Shown here piece by piece: positions 8,894-35,611 of a stretch of 36,508 bases of DNA (position 1 is its first letter; the number at the start of each line of letters is the position of its first letter). A model generated the notes under the pieces. The model did no database searches and was not told the DNA's origin. It saw nothing but the letters and a program-made list of their open reading frames with translations. Made by a program: the position numbers and the translations under genes. The stretch is from a virus. Its lineage: Duplodnaviria; Heunggongvirae; Uroviricota; Caudoviricetes. The stretch lies in the IMG/VR virus record IMGVR_UViG_2681813155_000011; one strand, given 5' to 3'.

Positions 8894-8911
8894 TGTACCG
8901 TTATTCACACA
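8894..8911 (-). promoter_or_regulatory. Candidate Ogr-dependent late promoter element (TGT-N12-ACA) upstream of FI
   Basis: tgtaccgttattcacaca, about 85 bp upstream of the FI start codon. Confidence 0.5.
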
Positions 8912-8959
8912 AAATGACGGTATTTGTCTACTTGCAGGGATAATCAAAATAATGCTGAT

Positions 8960-9532
8960 TCAGGGGGATTCATTACTCTTATTTGCCGGAAATTTTCTAT
9001 AAATTGTGGAAACACCCACATCAAAAATCAGTGCAATACGCTGTCTTGATTCTCCGGCCTCGAGTAAACGCCCAATCTGTGCCCACTGTTCGGTGGTCAA
9101 CTTAGGACGGCGTCCACCTACTCTGCCTTTGGCACGAGCTGCAGCCAGCCCTGCCCTGGTACGTTCAACTATCAGTTCGCGTTCCATTTCAGCCAGGGCA
9201 CCCATGACATGAAAAAAGAAACGGCCCATTGGGGTACTGGTATCAATACTGTCAGTCAGGCTTCGGAAATTCACACCACGCTGGCGCAACTCCTCTATCA
9301 GCGTAACAAGATGCCGCATACTGCGCCCCAACCTGTCCAGCTTCCAGACAACCAGCGTGTCTCCTGCCGATAGTGTCCTGAGCAGCTTTTTCAGCCCCGG
9401 TCTGTCGGACTTAGTGCCACTGATTTTATCCTCAAAAATCCGCTCACATCCCGCGCAGTTCAGTGCATTACGTTGCAAATCGGTGTTCTGGTCATTTGTT
9501 GACACGCGTACATAGCCAATAAGCATGATCAT
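8960..9532 (-). CDS. Serine DNA invertase (Hin/Gin/Cin/Pin family)
   Basis: N-terminus LIGYVRVSTNDQNTDLQRNAL with catalytic-Ser motif and a C-terminal HTH; abuts an invertible tail-fibre segment. Real start may be the third codon. Confidence 0.88.
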   Translation of the reverse strand: MIMLIGYVRVSTNDQNTDLQRNALNCAGCERIFEDKISGTKSDRPGLKKLLRTLSAGDTLVVWKLDRLGRSMRHLVTLIEELRQRGVNFRSLTDSIDTSTPMGRFFFHVMGALAEMERELIVERTRAGLAAARAKGRVGGRRPKLTTEQWAQIGRLLEAGESRQRIALIFDVGVSTIYRKFPANKSNESP

Positions 9533-9553
9533 CCCCCTGAATAAAAACCGGAG

Positions 9554-10105
9554 ATGATGCCAGTTAGCCGTTATCTCTGCATTTTCATAAACGTTGGTTT
9601 GGGAGAAGGTTCAGCATTACCGGTTGGTGTGCCTGTTCCGTGGCCTTCAGCTACACCACCGACAGGCTGGTTGAAATGCAATGGTGCAGCTTTTTCTGCT
9701 GAAGAATACCCGGAACTGGCAAAGGCTTACCCGACAAATAAATTGCCTGATTTACGCGGTGAGTTTATTCGTGGCTGGGATGATGGACGCGGTGTGGATA
9801 CGGGGAGGGCAATATTATCATCTCAGGGCGATGCCATACGTAATATCTATGGTGAGTTCAAGACTGTAAACGCCGAAAATTATTCAATATGGGAATCAGT
9901 AGACTCTTTTAAGGGGGCAGTGGTGCCTTTGAACCCCTCAACGGACAATAGTTATTTCTCCATAATCAATAGTATGTTGACACAAAGAACAGATGGCTCT
10001 GTTTACCCAACAGTGATTGGCCTTGATGCTTCAAGAATTGTTCCAACTGCAAACGAAAACCGTCCACGAAATATTGCATTTAACTTTATCGTGAGGGCTG
10101 CATAA
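9554..10105 (+). CDS. Alternative tail-fibre C-terminal (variable) segment, silent in this orientation
   Basis: The ORF runs across the left crossover site and encodes a tail-fibre C-terminal-type domain (PVPWPSATPPTGWLKCNGAAF...LPDLRGEFIRGWDDGRGVD); it would fuse to the constant part of H after inversion. Confidence 0.6.
   Translation: MMPVSRYLCIFINVGLGEGSALPVGVPVPWPSATPPTGWLKCNGAAFSAEEYPELAKAYPTNKLPDLRGEFIRGWDDGRGVDTGRAILSSQGDAIRNIYGEFKTVNAENYSIWESVDSFKGAVVPLNPSTDNSYFSIINSMLTQRTDGSVYPTVIGLDASRIVPTANENRPRNIAFNFIVRAA
9594..9608. repeat. Left inverted repeat (crossover site) of invertible tail-fibre segment
   Basis: ttggtttgggagaag; its reverse complement occurs at 11450..11464 inside gene H. 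Both copies encode G-L-G-E in their respective frames. Confidence 0.7.
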
Positions 10106-10707
10106 TGGATAACGCTGTATTAAATAGCGAGCTTATTGCCACGAAGGCGGGGAATATTACCGTCTATAGCTATGATGGTGAAACTCGGGAATATATTTCC
10201 ACTTCAAATGAATATCTTGCCGTTGGTGTTGGTATCCCGGCATATTCCTGTCTGGATGAACCTGGTATACATAAGGCGGGTTATGCAATCTGCCGTTCGG
10301 CAGATTTAAACTCATGGGAATATGTGCCAGACCATCGCGGTGAAATCGTCTATAACACCGAAACGGGAGACACCAAAGAAATCACAACTCCGGGTGATTA
10401 CCCCGAAAATACAACCACTATCGCCCCATTAACGCCATACGATAAATGGGATGGTGAGAAATGGGTGACCGATACTGAGGCACAGCATCGCGCCGCAGTA
10501 GACGCGGCAGAAGCACAGCGTCAGTCACTGATTGATACTGCAATGGCTTCCATTAGTCTGATTCAACTGAAATTACAGGCCGGGCGGAAACTGACGCAGG
10601 CAGAAACAACCCGGCTTAACGCTGTGCTGGATTACATTGACGCGGTGACGGCAACAGATACCAGCACCGCGCCGGATGTCATCTGGCCTGAACTGCCGGA
10701 GGCGTAG
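10105..10707 (+). CDS. Alternative tail-fibre assembly protein (Tfa/U'-like)
   Basis: 200 aa; C-terminus ...[28 protein letters not shown] is the tail-fibre-assembly signature; followed by a hairpin plus T-run (10720..10775). Confidence 0.7.
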
Positions 10708-11098
10708 GCCATTCAATATCGAGTGCTGTTGAAGTATTAATACGCATCAATAGCACTCGATATTTTTTCCATGCCAGTAACAGTTTCGTTTCATCATCTG
10801 TTGCCATACCTAAATCAACCGCATCCTGAAGCGGAGCTATTACATTCGTTGCCTCTGCTATCAGTGCAGATTTCTTTTCATCATTTATTAAGGCTAATTG
10901 TTCTGGTGTTGGAGAAGGACGGTCAACAATGACAGGATGACCGTTCTCACCACAGGTAATCATTTTTGTTACACTCTGTGCATTAATCAGTGTTTTCCAC
11001 TCTGATTCCGAGATTTCCACTGCATCATCAGGAATATTGGTGCCGTGAAATTCAGTCGAATAAAATCCGTTTGTCGATGCAGAATAAAAATATGACAT
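10679..11098 (-). CDS. G: Tail-fibre assembly protein (gpG-like), currently expressed copy
   Basis: Start taken at [13 protein letters not shown]; C-terminus ...[30 protein letters not shown] is Tfa-like; directly after the H stop. Confidence 0.7.
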
Positions 11099-11102
11099 TT
11101 CG

Positions 11103-12512
11103 TTAATATCCCATTGCAATGTAATACGCATCAGCAGATGAACCATATCCTGAACCGGGCGACACTGTAATATCAAATCCAGTGTTCTGGACATTTGTCG
11201 CCGATACAGTCGGCTGCCCTGACGCGCCAGTAACGTTCAATGTAACTGTGACAGCAAGGACTCTTGAGAATGTCATCGGGAACCTCATCCCGTATGTTGA
11301 AGAAACATTCGGGGAGCCATTCAACTGACCGCACTGTAAAATTAAACCAGACGGAAATTTTTGCGCAGCAGCCGTTACGGTATTAATTGACGCGAACAGG
11401 CTCATATCAGGTATCTGATTCGCCCCTGTACCTACATTCCTTTTAGCTGCTTCTCCCAAACCAAGGTATGCGAGAAGACCAGCGACATCCTTTCCACTCA
11501 AATTAGTCAGCGTATTGTCCAGCGGTTGTTTACCTGCCAGCGCATTAAGCATTGTCGTGGCAAAGTTCGGATCATTCCCCAACGCCGACGCCAGTTCGTT
11601 CAGTGTATCCAGTGCCGCAGGTGCAGAACCTACCATTGCTGCAATCGCCGATTTCACAAAAGCCGTGGTGGCAATCTGTGTATTGTTGACCGACTGTGCA
11701 GCAGTGGGGGCTGTTGGCGTTCCGGTGAGTGCCGGACTCGACAACGGCGCTTTCAGTGCCAGCGCATTGTTAATGGTGGTACTGAAATTCGGATCATTGT
11801 TAATGGCTGCGGCTATTTCTTTCAGCGTGTCCAGCGTGGCTGGCGCACCATTAATAAGAGCCGTCAGTGCCGCCTGAACAAACGCGGTGGTCGCAACCTG
11901 CGTGGTGTTATTCCCTGCCGCTGGAGTTGGCGCTTTTGGTGTCCCGGTAAACGTCGGACTTTCTTTGGGTGCATACTGTGAATGCGGGTCCGGTGCGGCA
12001 AGATGTTTTGCCATCTGATCATCCACGTACACCTTCAGCTCCAGTACCTTGTCATCCACATACTTGCGGGTTGCCAGCACTACGGCAGGGTCGATTTTCA
12101 GGGTGATATTGTCCGTGCTGCTGGTAATCAGCACCATGCGCACGGTCTGGGTACGCCCGCTGCCTTCAGCCAGTTGCGGCTTATAGCTTTCCGGGCAGTT
12201 GCCCACGGCAATCAATGCCCCGGACTCATCAAACAGGCCCACTTCACGTATCCACCAACCGCCCTCGTTTTCAGGGATCACCTGTTCAGCAATAATCTGG
12301 CTGCTGTTCTGCGGGTCGATATAGAGCATATTCAGCGCAGCCCGGCGTTTCTCATTTACCAATGCTGTCTGCTTGGCGTCCGGCGTTGGCAATGTTCCGC
12401 CGCCATCGCCCACCGCCATATGGGTAATTTTTAGCGGCACACCGAGCGCGGCGGCGCTGGCAAGTTTCGCCGCGCCAATATCCGTCAGCAGGGTATAAAA
12501 TTTTGTGCTCAT
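11103..12512 (-). CDS. H: Tail fibre protein (gpH-like) with invertible C-terminus
   Basis: 469 aa; Thr/Ala-rich repeats (TTAFV... twice); the crossover repeat lies within the gene at 11450..11464. Confidence 0.8.
11450..11464. repeat. Right inverted repeat (crossover site) inside H
   Basis: cttctcccaaaccaa is the reverse complement of 9594..9608. Confidence 0.7.
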
Positions 12513-13114
12513 GGATTCACTCTCATTGTGTCAATAACATGGACCGCCCCGCCTTCATGCGCGGTGCCGCCGGAAATAATTGTTTCGTTGATATACGGAT
12601 AGATCGTGATTTCTTCGCCAAGATAGCTGGCGGCCCCCACCCAATGCGGACCGCTGGTCTGCAGATTGATGGACATGCCGATCATGTGACGGCTACATGG
12701 TTTGGCATCGCTTATCAGCCGCTCAAGTTCCAGATAGGTATCTTCAGTGATGCCCTGGTCCTGCACGCCGATATCCAGGCGAAACGTGCCCGGTGTTTCT
12801 CCGGTCTGCCACCACTCAATAATGCGGATCAGGAATCCGAACGGTTCCACCACCCGCCGCACGGCACTGGTAGTTCCTTTATGCTGATGAATATAAAAAG
12901 CATCCTTCACTACCTGGCGTTTGACGCTTTCTGTCCAGCCCTCGTCCCAGCGATCCACAGAGAACGCCCAGGCGAGATAAGGCAGGAAGCTGACCGGACA
13001 GGTAGCCGGATTCCACAAGTCACGCAGCGGCACCTGCAGATCAGAAATCCCGCTACAGGTTTGCGCCAGTCGGCGCTCCAGTGAAGTTGAACCCGGTGGC
13101 AGCAGACTATTCAT
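12509..13114 (-). CDS. I: Baseplate protein gpI-like
   Basis: 201 aa, between J and H with overlapping stop/start; P2 synteny. Confidence 0.7.
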   Translation of the reverse strand: MNSLLPPGSTSLERRLAQTCSGISDLQVPLRDLWNPATCPVSFLPYLAWAFSVDRWDEGWTESVKRQVVKDAFYIHQHKGTTSAVRRVVEPFGFLIRIIEWWQTGETPGTFRLDIGVQDQGITEDTYLELERLISDAKPCSRHMIGMSINLQTSGPHWVGAASYLGEEITIYPYINETIISGGTAHEGGAVHVIDTMRVNP

Positions 13115-24022: not shown

Positions 24023-24721
24023 TTATTTGTTTCTTCTTTGTTCACGCCTTGTCTTGGCTTCGATAAGGCGTTGAGGTTCAGTGTAAAGCCGTTCTAAAAA
24101 AAGATAGGTAAAATCTTCAAGATCCTCAGCAGCAGCTTTATCCAAAATACCTTCATGCGCTCCATCATTTCCGTCATCTTTAACGCATTCAGCTAGTTCC
24201 CTTAAAGCTTCAGGCAGTAGATGATTATCAAATAACCACTCCATTCTTAACCCTAGGCTTCTCCTTATTTTTTGCGCAGGCCCTTGCTCCCCATCAGGAA
24301 GAAGTCCTTTTGTGGCATAATCAAGGCAAAGCCTAAACATGGTTGCTGCTGCATTATAACAACCTATAGCCAAACATTTCGCCCCTTCCTCATATGCACT
24401 ATTGATATGCTCAGGTAAGAACTCTGGTGGCTCCTCTACTGCTAAGTCTGCCGGTGATATAGGCCTAACAACCTCTGCAACTTCCTTTAAGCCGAATATT
24501 CCACTTTCCCAATTATAGCCATCTAAAGTTTTATTTTTCGTTAAAGGTCTGCAAAGAAACATTGTCGTTTTATGACACTCTCGGCAAACACAATAGACCT
24601 CGTACTCGTATGTTTTACCCCCGCCCAATGCATTGTAAACCCTAGTGCAATTCAGCCCATTAACATCAAACGCTATTTTTTGTGATCCACATCGTGGACA
24701 GTCATCCACTAACATAACCAT
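24023..24721 (-). CDS. Cargo protein: N-terminal zinc ribbon + C-terminal DUF4145-like domain (candidate single-gene defence/abortive-infection protein)
   Basis: 232 aa. N-terminus CPRCG...CVCRECHK (four Cys); C-terminus ...LPEALRELAECVKDDGNDGAHEGILDKAAAEDLEDFTYLFLERLY resembles the GN-x-AAH core of DUF4145 as I recall it. GGAGG 8 nt upstream; sits between the candidate cos and Q. Confidence 0.5.
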   Translation of the reverse strand: MVMLVDDCPRCGSQKIAFDVNGLNCTRVYNALGGGKTYEYEVYCVCRECHKTTMFLCRPLTKNKTLDGYNWESGIFGLKEVAEVVRPISPADLAVEEPPEFLPEHINSAYEEGAKCLAIGCYNAAATMFRLCLDYATKGLLPDGEQGPAQKIRRSLGLRMEWLFDNHLLPEALRELAECVKDDGNDGAHEGILDKAAAEDLEDFTYLFLERLYTEPQRLIEAKTRREQRRNK

Positions 24722-32808: not shown

Positions 32809-34035
32809 ATGACTCTCCATCAAACTTTATCTAAAGAATTAAGAGATTTATTTGTTAGTATTTTAAGACGTTCTCTTTTTCGCCCCCCCATCAAAATAAA
32901 TGGGGATATAGTCTCTGATTTTTCAAACAGATGCGAGCAGTTCAAAGAGTGCCTAAATGAATACATTTGTGATAACAATAATGCTGCTTCTGAAAGAGTT
33001 AAACCAAGAATTAAAACTATTGAAAAAATACAACATGGATTAACTAATTCTCTTAAAGCATTTTTATCTGGCGACATTAAAGGAGCCTACGATATTTTTG
33101 ATGAAGTTTTATCATACCCTACTGTCTATAGACATCTAAGAAGAATATCCATTCCACTAAAAGAAATATGTAATAAGCACAAGCCTTTATTCAGGGTAAG
33201 AAAGTCAGATAGACCAGTCGTAACAAGAAAGGAAATCTTTCATATCCCATTCACTCATCGACATCTTGTCAATGCTCAACGCTATTCCGTTGCAGGTTTG
33301 CCATGCCTTTACTTAGGTTCATCTCTCTATATATGCTGGCAGGAAATGGATAAACCTGACTTTGATAAATTATACCTATCATCATTTATATCTTGGGATG
33401 AGGAATCCTATATTTTAAATTTAGCTGCAGATTTTCTTTACAGTAGAACCGCTAAAGGATTTTACGGTGATATTAGTAATAGAGACAACCTCATTAAAAT
33501 ATCATATTTAACTTTATGGCCTCTGATAATTGCATGTAATTATTTAAAGCAGAATGAAAACTCTTCATTTAATCAAGAATATATCATCCCAAATTTGTTA
33601 ATGCAGTGGATAAGTCGACTTGAAGATAGAGCTATTGTCGGCATAGCATATCGCTCAACAAAAATAAAAAGAACAGCAAACTCACACTTAGCAACTAATG
33701 TCGTCTTGCCTCCAAAAGTAAACTATGAAGACACAATCACAAAACCTTATTGTCAGAAACTATTGTCAATGTTTGAGTTTACTCAACCTGTATCATGGCA
33801 GGTTTTGAAAACATTAGACTATAAAATTGATAATGAAATAAATCAAGAGCAAGAAAAAGCAATTCATTTACTAAAACAGAAAGAAAGATTAAGTGGCATA
33901 AAAGATTTAAATGAAGATCTTATAAACCTTTATCCTTTAACAGACTTCTACAAGCTAGAACAGTGCATGGATCGCCTGCTGCAGTATGATGTACTTGAGA
34001 TAAAATCTGGCGGCACTTTGGCGGCAGAGCATTAA
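32809..34035 (+). CDS. Cargo protein with RES-domain-like core (candidate NAD+-targeting toxin/defence effector)
   Basis: 408 aa, strongly AT-rich, starts 3 bp after the int stop. QRYSVAGLPCLYLGSSLYICWQE and IVGIAYRSTKIKRTANSHLATNVVLPP fit the Arg / Glu / Ser motif order of the RES domain; extra N- and C-terminal regions of unknown fold. Confidence 0.5.
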   Translation: MTLHQTLSKELRDLFVSILRRSLFRPPIKINGDIVSDFSNRCEQFKECLNEYICDNNNAASERVKPRIKTIEKIQHGLTNSLKAFLSGDIKGAYDIFDEVLSYPTVYRHLRRISIPLKEICNKHKPLFRVRKSDRPVVTRKEIFHIPFTHRHLVNAQRYSVAGLPCLYLGSSLYICWQEMDKPDFDKLYLSSFISWDEESYILNLAADFLYSRTAKGFYGDISNRDNLIKISYLTLWPLIIACNYLKQNENSSFNQEYIIPNLLMQWISRLEDRAIVGIAYRSTKIKRTANSHLATNVVLPPKVNYEDTITKPYCQKLLSMFEFTQPVSWQVLKTLDYKIDNEINQEQEKAIHLLKQKERLSGIKDLNEDLINLYPLTDFYKLEQCMDRLLQYDVLEIKSGGTLAAEH

Positions 34036-34369: not shown

Positions 34370-35611
34370 ATGGCAAGACAAACCAAACCTCTATCCGTTA
34401 AGGAAATCGAATCTGCTAAACCCAAGGAAGCGGACTACGTTCTCTATGATGGCGATGGCCTTGAGCTACTCATTAAATCCAGCGGGAGTAAAATCTGGCA
34501 GTTTCGCTACATTCGCCCTGTCACCAAGACACGAGCAAAGAAAAGCATAGGCCCTTACCCGTCAGTTACCCTTGCCGATGCCAGAAACTACCGTGCAGAG
34601 TCCCGCTCACTCCTAGCTAAACAGATTGATCCGCAGGAACATCAGCAAGAACAATTGCGTAGTTCGCTGGAAGCCAAAACCAATACTTTCCAGCTCGTAG
34701 CTGAACGTTGGTGGAATGTGAAGAAAGCCAGTGTGACAGAGGACTATGCGGAAGATATCTGGCGCTCTCTTGAAAGAGATGTCTTTCCTGCGATTGGCGA
34801 CGTTAGCGTTACAGATATTAAAGCTCATACACTGGTTCAGGCCGTACAACCGGTTCAGGCCAGAGGAGCACTGGAAACGGTTCGTCGCCTGTGTCAACGT
34901 ATTAATGAGGTCATGATCTATGCCCAGAACACAGGGCTGATTGATGCTGTTCCCAGCGTTAATATCGGTAAAGCCTTCGAAAAGCCTCAGAAAAAGAACA
35001 TGCCCAGCATTCGACCGGATCAGCTATCTCAACTGATGCAGACAATGCGAACAGCCAGCATTAGCCTTTCCACACGCTGCCTGTTCATGTGGCAACTTCT
35101 TACTATTACCCGCCCTGCCGAAGCGGCTGAAGCTCGCTGGGAAGAAGTAGACATAGAAGCGCAAGAGTGGAAGATTCCCGCAGCACGCATGAAAATGAAC
35201 CGCGACCATACTGTTCCATTGTCAGATGAAGCAATAGCTGTGCTGGAGATGATGAAACCGCTAAGCGGCAACCGAGAATTTATCTTTCCTAGCCGTATCA
35301 AGCCCAACCAGCCTATGAACAGTCAGACTGTTAACGCCTCACTAAAACGCGCAGGTTTTGGTGGTGTGCTTGTTTCGCATGGTCTGAGATCAATTGCCAG
35401 TACGGCTCTTAATGAACAAGGCTTTCCGCCTGATGCCATTGAGGCAGCATTGGCCCATGTGGATAAGAATGAGGTTCGTCGTGCTTATAACCGCAGCGAT
35501 TACCTGGAACAGCGTCGCCCGATGATGCAATGGTGGGCAAATTTTGTGATGGCAGCGGATCGTGGAAGCATGATTGAAGGTGGGATAAAAGGAATGAAGC
35601 TAGTTGGGTGA
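34370..35611 (+). CDS. intA: P4/CP4-57-family integrase
   Basis: 413 aa, MARQTKPLSVKEIESAKPKEADYVLYDGDGLELLIKSSGSKIWQFRY... resembles E. coli IntA, which sits at ssrA in K-12. Confidence 0.8.
   Translation: MARQTKPLSVKEIESAKPKEADYVLYDGDGLELLIKSSGSKIWQFRYIRPVTKTRAKKSIGPYPSVTLADARNYRAESRSLLAKQIDPQEHQQEQLRSSLEAKTNTFQLVAERWWNVKKASVTEDYAEDIWRSLERDVFPAIGDVSVTDIKAHTLVQAVQPVQARGALETVRRLCQRINEVMIYAQNTGLIDAVPSVNIGKAFEKPQKKNMPSIRPDQLSQLMQTMRTASISLSTRCLFMWQLLTITRPAEAAEARWEEVDIEAQEWKIPAARMKMNRDHTVPLSDEAIAVLEMMKPLSGNREFIFPSRIKPNQPMNSQTVNASLKRAGFGGVLVSHGLRSIASTALNEQGFPPDAIEAALAHVDKNEVRRAYNRSDYLEQRRPMMQWWANFVMAADRGSMIEGGIKGMKLVG

Follow-up and report, generated by a model that had tools for sequence, protein, structure and literature searches.

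The locus between the tail-fibre module and the sheath gene of this prophage raises the question of whether a DNA invertase gene and the inverted-repeat-bounded segment beside it constitute a switch that alternates the tip of the tail fibre, and whether that switch operates. The window, henceforth the whole 36,508-nucleotide stretch of Caudoviricetes DNA that was analysed, holds a Fels-2/186-like prophage of the P2 family located at ssrA, and also encodes gpA, gpD, a 186-type CI repressor and an integrase. Outside the swapped cassette, the window and phage Cartapus are 99.5% identical; the left flank and the invertase gene are 100% identical, and homology ends at 9608 and resumes at 11403. The fibre module is of the P2-family (Peduoviridae) H-G type as judged by a gpH-type N-terminus, the order J-I-H-tfa upstream of the sheath gene FI, and the P2-type context. 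The slot between this module and FI is the P2 Z/fun hotspot, and the RefSeq homologues display the gene order protein I, fibre, tfa, invertase, sheath. The locus is very probably a Gin/Cin-type, invertase-driven, two-state tail-fibre switch in a P2-like prophage.

Invertase gene and recombination sites

The invertase is a 188-aa Din-family protein (Gin/Cin/Pin/Hin) encoded on the minus strand at 8960..9526, with Pfam matches to Resolvase (E = 2.3e-53) and HTH_7. A Hin/Gin-family invertase adjoining the segment had been predicted, and this assignment is supported by the domain matches, by 79% identity to P1 Cin (no other classical invertase in the phage collection is closer), and by the gap-free alignment of residues 1-184 to the Mu Gin structures 3UJ3 and 4M6F. 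The start was corrected from 9532 to 9526, as the open reading frame called at 8960-9532 includes an extra upstream in-frame ATG and the RefSeq homologues begin at the second ATG. The reading frame is intact and full length, all blocks are conserved relative to Gin, the catalytic Ser9 is present, and Met114 is the same as in wild-type Gin. PADLOC returned no match for the invertase, and its NCBIfam matches were all far under the curated cut-offs; the two chaperones described below had no NCBIfam match.

The exact 15-bp inverted repeat, TTGGTTTGGGAGAAG, occurs twice in the 36.5-kb window, at 9594-9608 (plus strand) and 11450-11464 (minus strand). Allowing up to 2 mismatches, the mean number of matches in shuffled sequence was 0.13. 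The arms found by the repeat finder grow to 27 nt (9582-9608 and 11450-11476; 81% complementary), and within each 26-bp Din-type site the exact 15 bp cover the inner 12-bp half-site, the 2-bp core and 1 base more. The crossover dinucleotides are therefore placed at 9594-9595 and 11463-11464, giving an invertible unit of 1871 bp. The left 26-bp site (9582..9607, core TT at 9594-9595) lies 68 bp from the invertase ATG; its reverse complement, TTCTCCCAAACC-AA-CGTTTATGAAAA, can be aligned with Mu gix and P1 cixL. The right 26-bp site (11451..11476), TTCTCCCAAACC-AA-GGTATGCGAGAA, lies inside the fibre gene H with its AA core at 11463-11464 in codon Leu350. The two sites are inverted, each consists of 12-bp half-sites around a 2-bp core, the same AA/TT core is present in each, and both fit the consensus of the family. 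The original prediction described 15-bp inverted repeats bounding a segment of ~1.9 kb; its coordinates were exact, but the functional sites are 26 bp rather than 15 bp long. A scan for full sites and half-sites found no third recombination site in the window. A shufflon or multiple-inversion arrangement with more than two sites, of the p15B Min type or the P2-like type of enteropathogenic E. coli (EPEC), was ruled out since the window has two sites only.

The 5′ end of the invertase gene contains a putative equivalent of the recombinational enhancer (sis) at 9437..9508 (minus strand), at a position that matches the P1-annotated +19..+90 of cin; its enhancer function is inferred. This stretch is 56/72 (78%) identical to the annotated P1 enhancer, compared to 234/330 for the remaining gene. 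At third codon positions, 12 of 24 match in the enhancer-equivalent stretch versus 43 of 110 in the remaining gene, an excess that is not significant. Comparison of third positions with those of P1 cin and Mu gin gave no support for extra conservation of the enhancer, and the level observed can be explained by coding constraint. A consensus scan of 9527-9620 detected no sigma-70-like promoter for the invertase.

The missing promoter match and the lack of excess enhancer conservation are both consistent with a fossil switch, in which the architecture is kept in a copy that no longer flips, owing to a silent invertase or a defective enhancer, and the fibre shown in the window's orientation is always made. 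This alternative is considered improbable. The invertase is full length and retains Ser9 and all the blocks shared with Gin, the inner half-sites and core are identical in both sites, and the identity of the left flank and invertase to Cartapus is complete, each of which argues against a decayed system.

Fibre cassettes and the orphan reading frame

The tail-fibre gene H (11103..12512, minus strand) encodes 469 aa with a Phage_tail_fib N-terminus (PF12571, E = 2e-65) and a Gp53-like_C C-terminus. Residues 1-350 (12512-11463) form the constant part and residues 351-469 (11462-11106) the variable part, Hv, followed by the stop codon at 11105-11103. Segments of Shigella phages SfI, SfII, SfIV and SfV share 92-97% identity with Hv. 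Its partner, a 139-aa tfa assembly protein (10679..11098, minus strand; Pfam Caudo_TAP, E = 1.6e-31), starts 4 nt past the H stop codon. On the plus strand, a silent alternative C-terminus, Hv′, extends for 169 aa from GLGE (9596..10105), carries a Pfam Collar domain, and resembles solved short-tail-fibre and T4 gp37 tip structures. It is followed by its partner tfa′ (10105..10707, plus strand), a 200-aa assembly protein that also matches Caudo_TAP (E = 2.4e-32); its RefSeq homologues are named tfaE, and the annotation of the homologue in E. coli ML35 agrees. The segment thus consists of two cassettes that converge on each other, and in each a Caudo_TAP gene comes after the fibre C-terminus, as anticipated by the original prediction of two alternative C-termini that each have their own chaperone.

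The repeats were also predicted to lie one inside H and the other inside an alternative C-terminal reading frame, here the one at 9554-10105, and G-L-G-E is indeed encoded in frame at both. The right site falls in H codon 350 and the inner half-sites are identical, so that in each orientation the reading frame continues from the constant 350 residues into one of the two C-termini. Inverting the segment in silico joined H residue 350 to Hv′ in frame, and an open 519-aa H′ replaced the 469-aa H. The orientation found in the window is the Hv-on state.

A hairpin with an 18-bp stem followed by U6 is located at 10715..10770 (plus strand), just past the tfa′ stop and antisense within the 3′ end of tfa. 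The underlying inverted repeat (I3) is 94% complementary and the RNA folds at -30.3 kcal/mol (z = -8.5), so that it looks like a candidate intrinsic terminator of the flipped-on operon. Two further candidates were rejected as terminators: the hairpin past the tfa stop (10672-10640, minus strand) has a moderate z of -2.5 without a U-run, and a terminator-like site flagged by scan between the left site and the invertase (9565-9546, minus strand) has a fold z of -0.15.

From these elements, by analogy with characterised family members, the serine invertase would bind both 26-bp sites, cut at the central AA/TT and invert the 1871-bp segment. Inversion probably requires Fis bound to an enhancer near the start of the invertase gene, as for Gin, Cin and Hin. 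The constant 350-residue shaft of H would then be joined either to the gp53-like Hv (469 aa) or to the Collar-domain Hv′ (519 aa), and in either orientation the matching chaperone would lie directly downstream of the expressed C-terminus. By homology, a lysogen population should release virions with two adsorption specificities, and we infer host-range switching by a swap of the fibre tip. For host-range prediction, this means two receptor-binding tips encoded by one prophage, and cassettes that are exchanged between otherwise identical phages.

Hv′ is the downstream part of an orphan reading frame at 9554-10105 (plus strand) that begins at an ATGATG just outside the segment. This frame had been described as promoterless; a consensus scan, the sole basis for the statement, found no promoter-like site upstream, but the frame does have the ATGATG start. 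The position of this start outside the segment leaves room for another role, in which inversion acts mainly in the lysogen and not in the virion: the orphan frame would yield a free receptor-binding fragment, dependent on orientation, that blocks other phages, and other Pin-type segments might be further targets of the invertase in trans. A precedent exists in e14, where the PinQ-driven chimera StfE2 is reported to block adsorption of other phages (PMC12529663). The frame also stays open across 40 variant left flanks, and E. coli genomes with such loci carry a median of 2 matching places each, which makes cross-action of the invertase in trans plausible. Against this, the 14-residue leader varies non-conservatively among the left flanks (R/C/H, Y/N, L/R), the GGAG is only 0-3 nt from the ATGs, and the upstream scan gave no promoter-like site. 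A comparable orphan frame in Mu is a gene-finder product. In addition, the prophage looks complete and closely resembles Cartapus, DNA of which has been detected at a low level in LF82 virion preparations (PMC9928086). A main role in the lysogen is accordingly judged very unlikely, and it is just as doubtful that the switch doubles as a phase-variable lysogen defence, with a fibre tip beside the invertase translated from the 9554 ATGATG and masking receptors. With the virion fibre switch as the preferred reading, the 183-aa "phage tail protein" annotated beside the invertase is the silent half of H and not a separate gene.

Orientation of the segment at orthologous loci

The original prediction called for a search of other assemblies for the flipped form, and both orientations were found at orthologous loci in E. 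coli RefSeq genomes. In E. coli ML35 the same cassette pair lies as it does in the window (100% coverage, 96.5% identity), and in isolate F404 the pair is flipped (100% coverage, 95.1% identity) with the strand switch exactly at the repeats. The near-isogenic isolates DG341-1 and DG342-2 have chromosomes of equal length; over 6443 bp their sole difference is a stretch of 1583 bp that is perfectly inverted between copies of the 15-bp repeat found in the window. Among 85 complete segments with this H constant part in public contigs, the pair class of the window lay 11 times in one orientation and 8 times in the opposite one, and seven pair types were seen in both orientations. A gp53-like end is seldom paired with a Collar/TfaE end as it is here: the complete combination was present in 1 of 95 public contigs, as well as in ML35 and F404. 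Among complete RefSeq E. coli genomes, none reaches 99% identity over the whole 3.7-kb region, and a scan of GTDB species representatives with a 40-mer of site plus flank gave no match.

The evidence for both orientations is thus drawn from orthologous loci, and the window itself shows one orientation of its own copy. The single orientation would also be expected of the fossil switch considered above, but near-isogenic isolates differ in orientation at loci whose flanks are 97% identical, which favours an active two-state switch. In 15 of 78 metagenome contigs, the end lay 0-40 nt away from the repeat's inner edge. These contig breaks could also stem from co-resident prophages or from strains with other cassettes. 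For assembly, the consequence is that contigs break or fold back at the crossover site.

Comparison with known invertible fibre segments

The design had been likened to Mu G/gin and P1 C/cin, and each structural element predicted was found here. The mechanism, the invertase family and the occurrence in P2/Fels-2-like prophages are already published, and near-identical loci are annotated in RefSeq.

The gene order, Sc-[Sv U / U′ Sv′]-gin, is that of Mu G/gin, as are the 26-bp sites built from 12-bp half-sites. In both systems the invertase gene has its 5′ end towards the segment, and the boundary-to-ATG distance is 67 bp in Mu and 68 bp here. The invertase aligns with Gin without gaps, and Mu has an orphan reading frame of the same kind. 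Unlike Mu, the phage carrying this switch belongs to the P2 family, its segment spans 1.87 kb rather than ~3 kb, and the crossover occurs at residue 350 of 469, which leaves the greater part of the fibre constant. The AA core is shared with cix and hix, whereas that of gix is GA, and the variable ends are unrelated at the DNA level to Mu Sv and Sv′.

The half-sites and AA core resemble P1 cixL, and Cin is 79% identical to the invertase. In P1, however, the 3′ end of cin abuts cixL and the enhancer is consequently ~500 bp from the site, whereas here the invertase gene has its 5′ end towards the site and the enhancer-equivalent stretch is ~90-160 bp away. The P1 C segment is also larger, at 4.2 kb compared to 1.87 kb.

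Fels-2 fin and other P2-like fibre inversions (those of EPEC E2348/69 and of phages Cartapus, P88 and pro483) share the phage family and the genomic slot. Inversion by Fels-2 fin (STM2702) has been reported (PMC7953296), phase variation has been shown for P2-like prophages of EPEC (PMC4272514), and an invertase with inverted neighbouring genes has been noted at the P2 Z/fun hotspot (bioRxiv 10.1101/2024.10.15.618418). Cartapus differs in its cassette content, and the EPEC prophage with a three-site shufflon differs from the simple two-site switch described here. The e14 P segment with pinE likewise places a Din-family invertase beside a ~1.8-kb segment with fibre C-termini and tfa genes, and tfaE is the name given by NCBI to homologues of the 200-aa chaperone. 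However, e14 is a defective lambdoid element with a truncated fibre gene, whereas the switch described here is part of an apparently complete P2-type virion module.

Recombination sites, fibre cassettes and invertase

The window contains just two exact copies of the 15-mer TTGGTTTGGGAGAAG, at 9594-9608 (plus) and 11450-11464 (minus); with up to two mismatches allowed, dinucleotide-preserving shuffles gave a chance mean of 0.13 matches. A repeat finder extended the pair to 27-nt arms with 81% complementarity. Comparison with Mu gix and P1 cixL identifies each arm as a 26-bp Gin/Cin/Hin-type site, in which a 2-bp core is flanked by two imperfect 12-bp half-sites. The left site (9582-9607) reads, as its reverse complement, TTCTCCCAAACC-AA-CGTTTATGAAAA, and the right site (11451-11476) reads TTCTCCCAAACC-AA-GGTATGCGAGAA; the exact 15 bp cover the inner half-site together with the core and one more base. 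The crossover dinucleotides lie at 9594-9595 (left) and 11463-11464 (right), and the invertible unit is therefore 1871 bp. No full sites or half-sites beyond these two were found when the window was scanned; the segment is a two-state switch and not a shufflon. G-L-G-E is in frame at both sites, with the right core within codon Leu350 of the tail-fibre gene; the inverted repeats and shared motif of the original prediction are both confirmed.

The P2-type tail-fibre gene H (11103-12512, minus) encodes 469 aa, of which the N-terminus is of the P2 gpH type (PF12571, E = 2e-65) and the C-terminus gp53-like, and is followed after 4 nt by tfa (10679-11098, minus), which encodes a 139-aa Caudo_TAP protein. 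On the plus strand, an orphan ORF with a Collar domain (9554-10105) is followed directly by tfa' (10105-10707), encoding a 200-aa Caudo_TAP protein; tfa and tfa' share 29 nt (10679-10707). In-silico inversion of 9594-11464 yielded a 519-aa fibre, H', with an uninterrupted frame in which 350 constant residues run on as GLGEGSALPVG... into the Collar-domain end. Two alternative fibre C-termini, each with its own chaperone, are present as predicted: the current one, Hv, with tfa, and the silent one, Hv', with tfa', the latter fused to H in frame by the flip. Directly 3' of the tfa' stop, a very stable hairpin (10715-10764) and U6 tract (10715-10770 in all, plus; 18-bp stem, -30.3 kcal/mol, z = -8.5) lie inside the 3' part of the convergent tfa coding region, antisense to it, and look like an intrinsic terminator for the flipped-on operon. 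For another terminator-like site, which the scan flagged in the gap separating the left site from the invertase, folding gave no support (z = -0.15).

The orphan ORF is the silent C-terminal half of H extended by 14 intergenic residues, and RefSeq treats its homologues as a distinct gene product, a 183-aa 'phage tail protein'. That it would make a free receptor-binding fragment in lysogens, interfering with other phages, has a precedent in the e14 PinQ/StfE2 report (PMC12529663). Its ATGATG start is located outside the segment and, together with the open frame, is kept across 40 variant flanks, but the leader varies non-conservatively, the Shine-Dalgarno sequence is badly spaced, a scan for a promoter of the ORF found none and the same gene-finder artefact exists in Mu. 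On this analysis a free fragment is very improbable.

The invertase ORF (8960-9532, minus; Resolvase E = 2e-53, HTH_7) has RefSeq homologues that begin at the second ATG (9526 here), giving 188 aa. The assignment to the Hin/Gin family is borne out by these domain matches, by 79% identity to P1 Cin and by gap-free alignment of residues 1-184 to the Mu Gin structures 3UJ3 and 4M6F. The protein has the nucleophilic Ser9 and, like the wild-type enzyme, Met at position 114. The stretch equivalent to the Cin enhancer, annotated in P1 at +19..+90 of cin, is 9508-9437 here and is 78% identical to it, compared to 71% for the remaining gene. The excess at third codon positions is not significant (12/24 in the stretch versus 43/110 in the rest of the gene), and 9508-9437 is therefore a candidate recombinational enhancer.

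Orientation of the segment in related genomes

Window 8900-12600, native or flipped in silico, was used as query against E. coli RefSeq. Place coverage of at least 80% was obtained in 10 records for the window orientation and in 13 for the flipped query. The same cassette pair is carried in window orientation by E. coli ML35 and flipped by isolate F404, with collinear flanks and a strand switch exactly at the repeats; the original prediction proposed to seek the flipped form in assemblies of the same strain, and F404 carries it at an orthologous locus. The chromosomes of DG341-1 and DG342-2 are equal in length (5,067,659 bp) and carry a related locus with flanks 95-97% identical. Over 6443 bp, their sole difference is a 1583-bp inversion with zero mismatches, ending at the same 15-bp repeat.

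A 40-mer probe combining the right site and the constant H flank matched 78 metagenome stretches and at least 120 viral-contig stretches. Among the matches listed, 85 loci had a complete two-site segment; in these, the window's pair class (AAKRNV... with GSALPV...) had one end on H 11 times and the other end 8 times, and 7 of 20 pair types were found both ways. Of the metagenome contigs, 15/78 terminate within 0-40 nt of the right repeat's inner edge, nine of them at 0-1 nt. An assembly graph branches at this edge when both orientations coexist, and such ends point to samples that are mixed in orientation or in cassettes; they are supportive only, since co-resident elements with other cassettes yield the same branch. 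Two viral contigs carry the constant H flank inverted on both sides of the segment (L095, 223-262 minus and 2126-2165 plus; L129, 31-70 minus and 1946-1985 plus), and are probably fold-back misassemblies at the invertible segment.

The finding of an invertible tail-fibre segment is real and was correctly interpreted in the original prediction. A fossil switch in this copy is unlikely, because the enzyme and sites are intact and close relatives flip.

Possible cassette exchange and prophage setting

Phage Cartapus is 99.4-100% identical to the window on both sides but carries different invertible cassettes. Identity is 100% as far as 9608, where the left repeat has its inner edge, and homology is taken up again at 11403, which lies 47 nt inward of the right repeat; the cassette pair between these breaks is a different and shorter one. 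The position of the breaks suggests that cassettes were exchanged at the recombination sites or close to them. Among the matches listed, the window's exact pair is uncommon (complete in 1/95 public contigs with enough sequence) while its single halves are common, and Hv (11106-11462, minus) has 92-97% protein identity to segments of Shigella phages SfI, SfII, SfIV and SfV; on such sequence comparison, the cassettes are mobile modules. These four are S. flexneri serotype-converting phages, and in several records the Hv-like region carries no annotation beyond hypothetical or short tail fibre.

A P2-family prophage that looks complete lies in the window, with genes for gpD, tape-measure protein, tube, sheath, baseplate J and I, terminase, capsid, gpA, a Dam methylase, a 186-type CI repressor and an integrase. 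It is inserted at the 3' end of the ssrA tmRNA gene (698-1060; tag ANDENYALAA), which forms the left boundary, and Cartapus homology starts at 1016. Since a second integrase, of the P4/CP4-57 type (34370-35611, 413 aa), lies just past the right end, the prophage seems to stand in tandem with another ssrA-targeting island. A 408-aa ORF (32809-34035, plus) directly downstream of the phage integrase had no match in Pfam, NCBIfam or PADLOC and may be cargo at the prophage end. At the left end, a 160-aa ORF (1184-1666, plus) with a weak BRCT-like C-terminus is partially similar to PADLOC candidate PDC-S48 (E = 2e-7). The P2 old/tin defence hotspot, which is flanked by the portal gene and gpA, encodes a 232-aa DUF4145 protein (24023-24721, minus) that weakly resembles PD-T7-4, a candidate defence protein in PADLOC (E = 1e-6). 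The invertase and segment sit in the P2 Z/fun hotspot, which separates the fibre module from sheath gene FI; an invertase whose neighbouring genes are inverted was noted at this hotspot earlier (bioRxiv 10.1101/2024.10.15.618418).

Comparison with known inversion systems

In Mu and P1, tail-fibre inversion proceeds through Din-family invertases. The minus-strand gene order here, H-constant-[Hv tfa / tfa' Hv']-invertase, equals Mu's Sc-[Sv U / U' Sv']-gin, and 68 bp separate the invertase gene's 5' end from the segment boundary, compared to 67 bp in Mu. Among P2-type prophages, Fels-2 shows an inversion between Salmonella LT2 and LT7 adjoining fin (STM2702) (PMC7953296), and sequencing of clonal cultures of EPEC E2348/69 showed two P2-like prophages to be phase-variable, one being a shufflon with three sites (PMC4272514). 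The tail-fibre switch of this prophage is of an already described kind.
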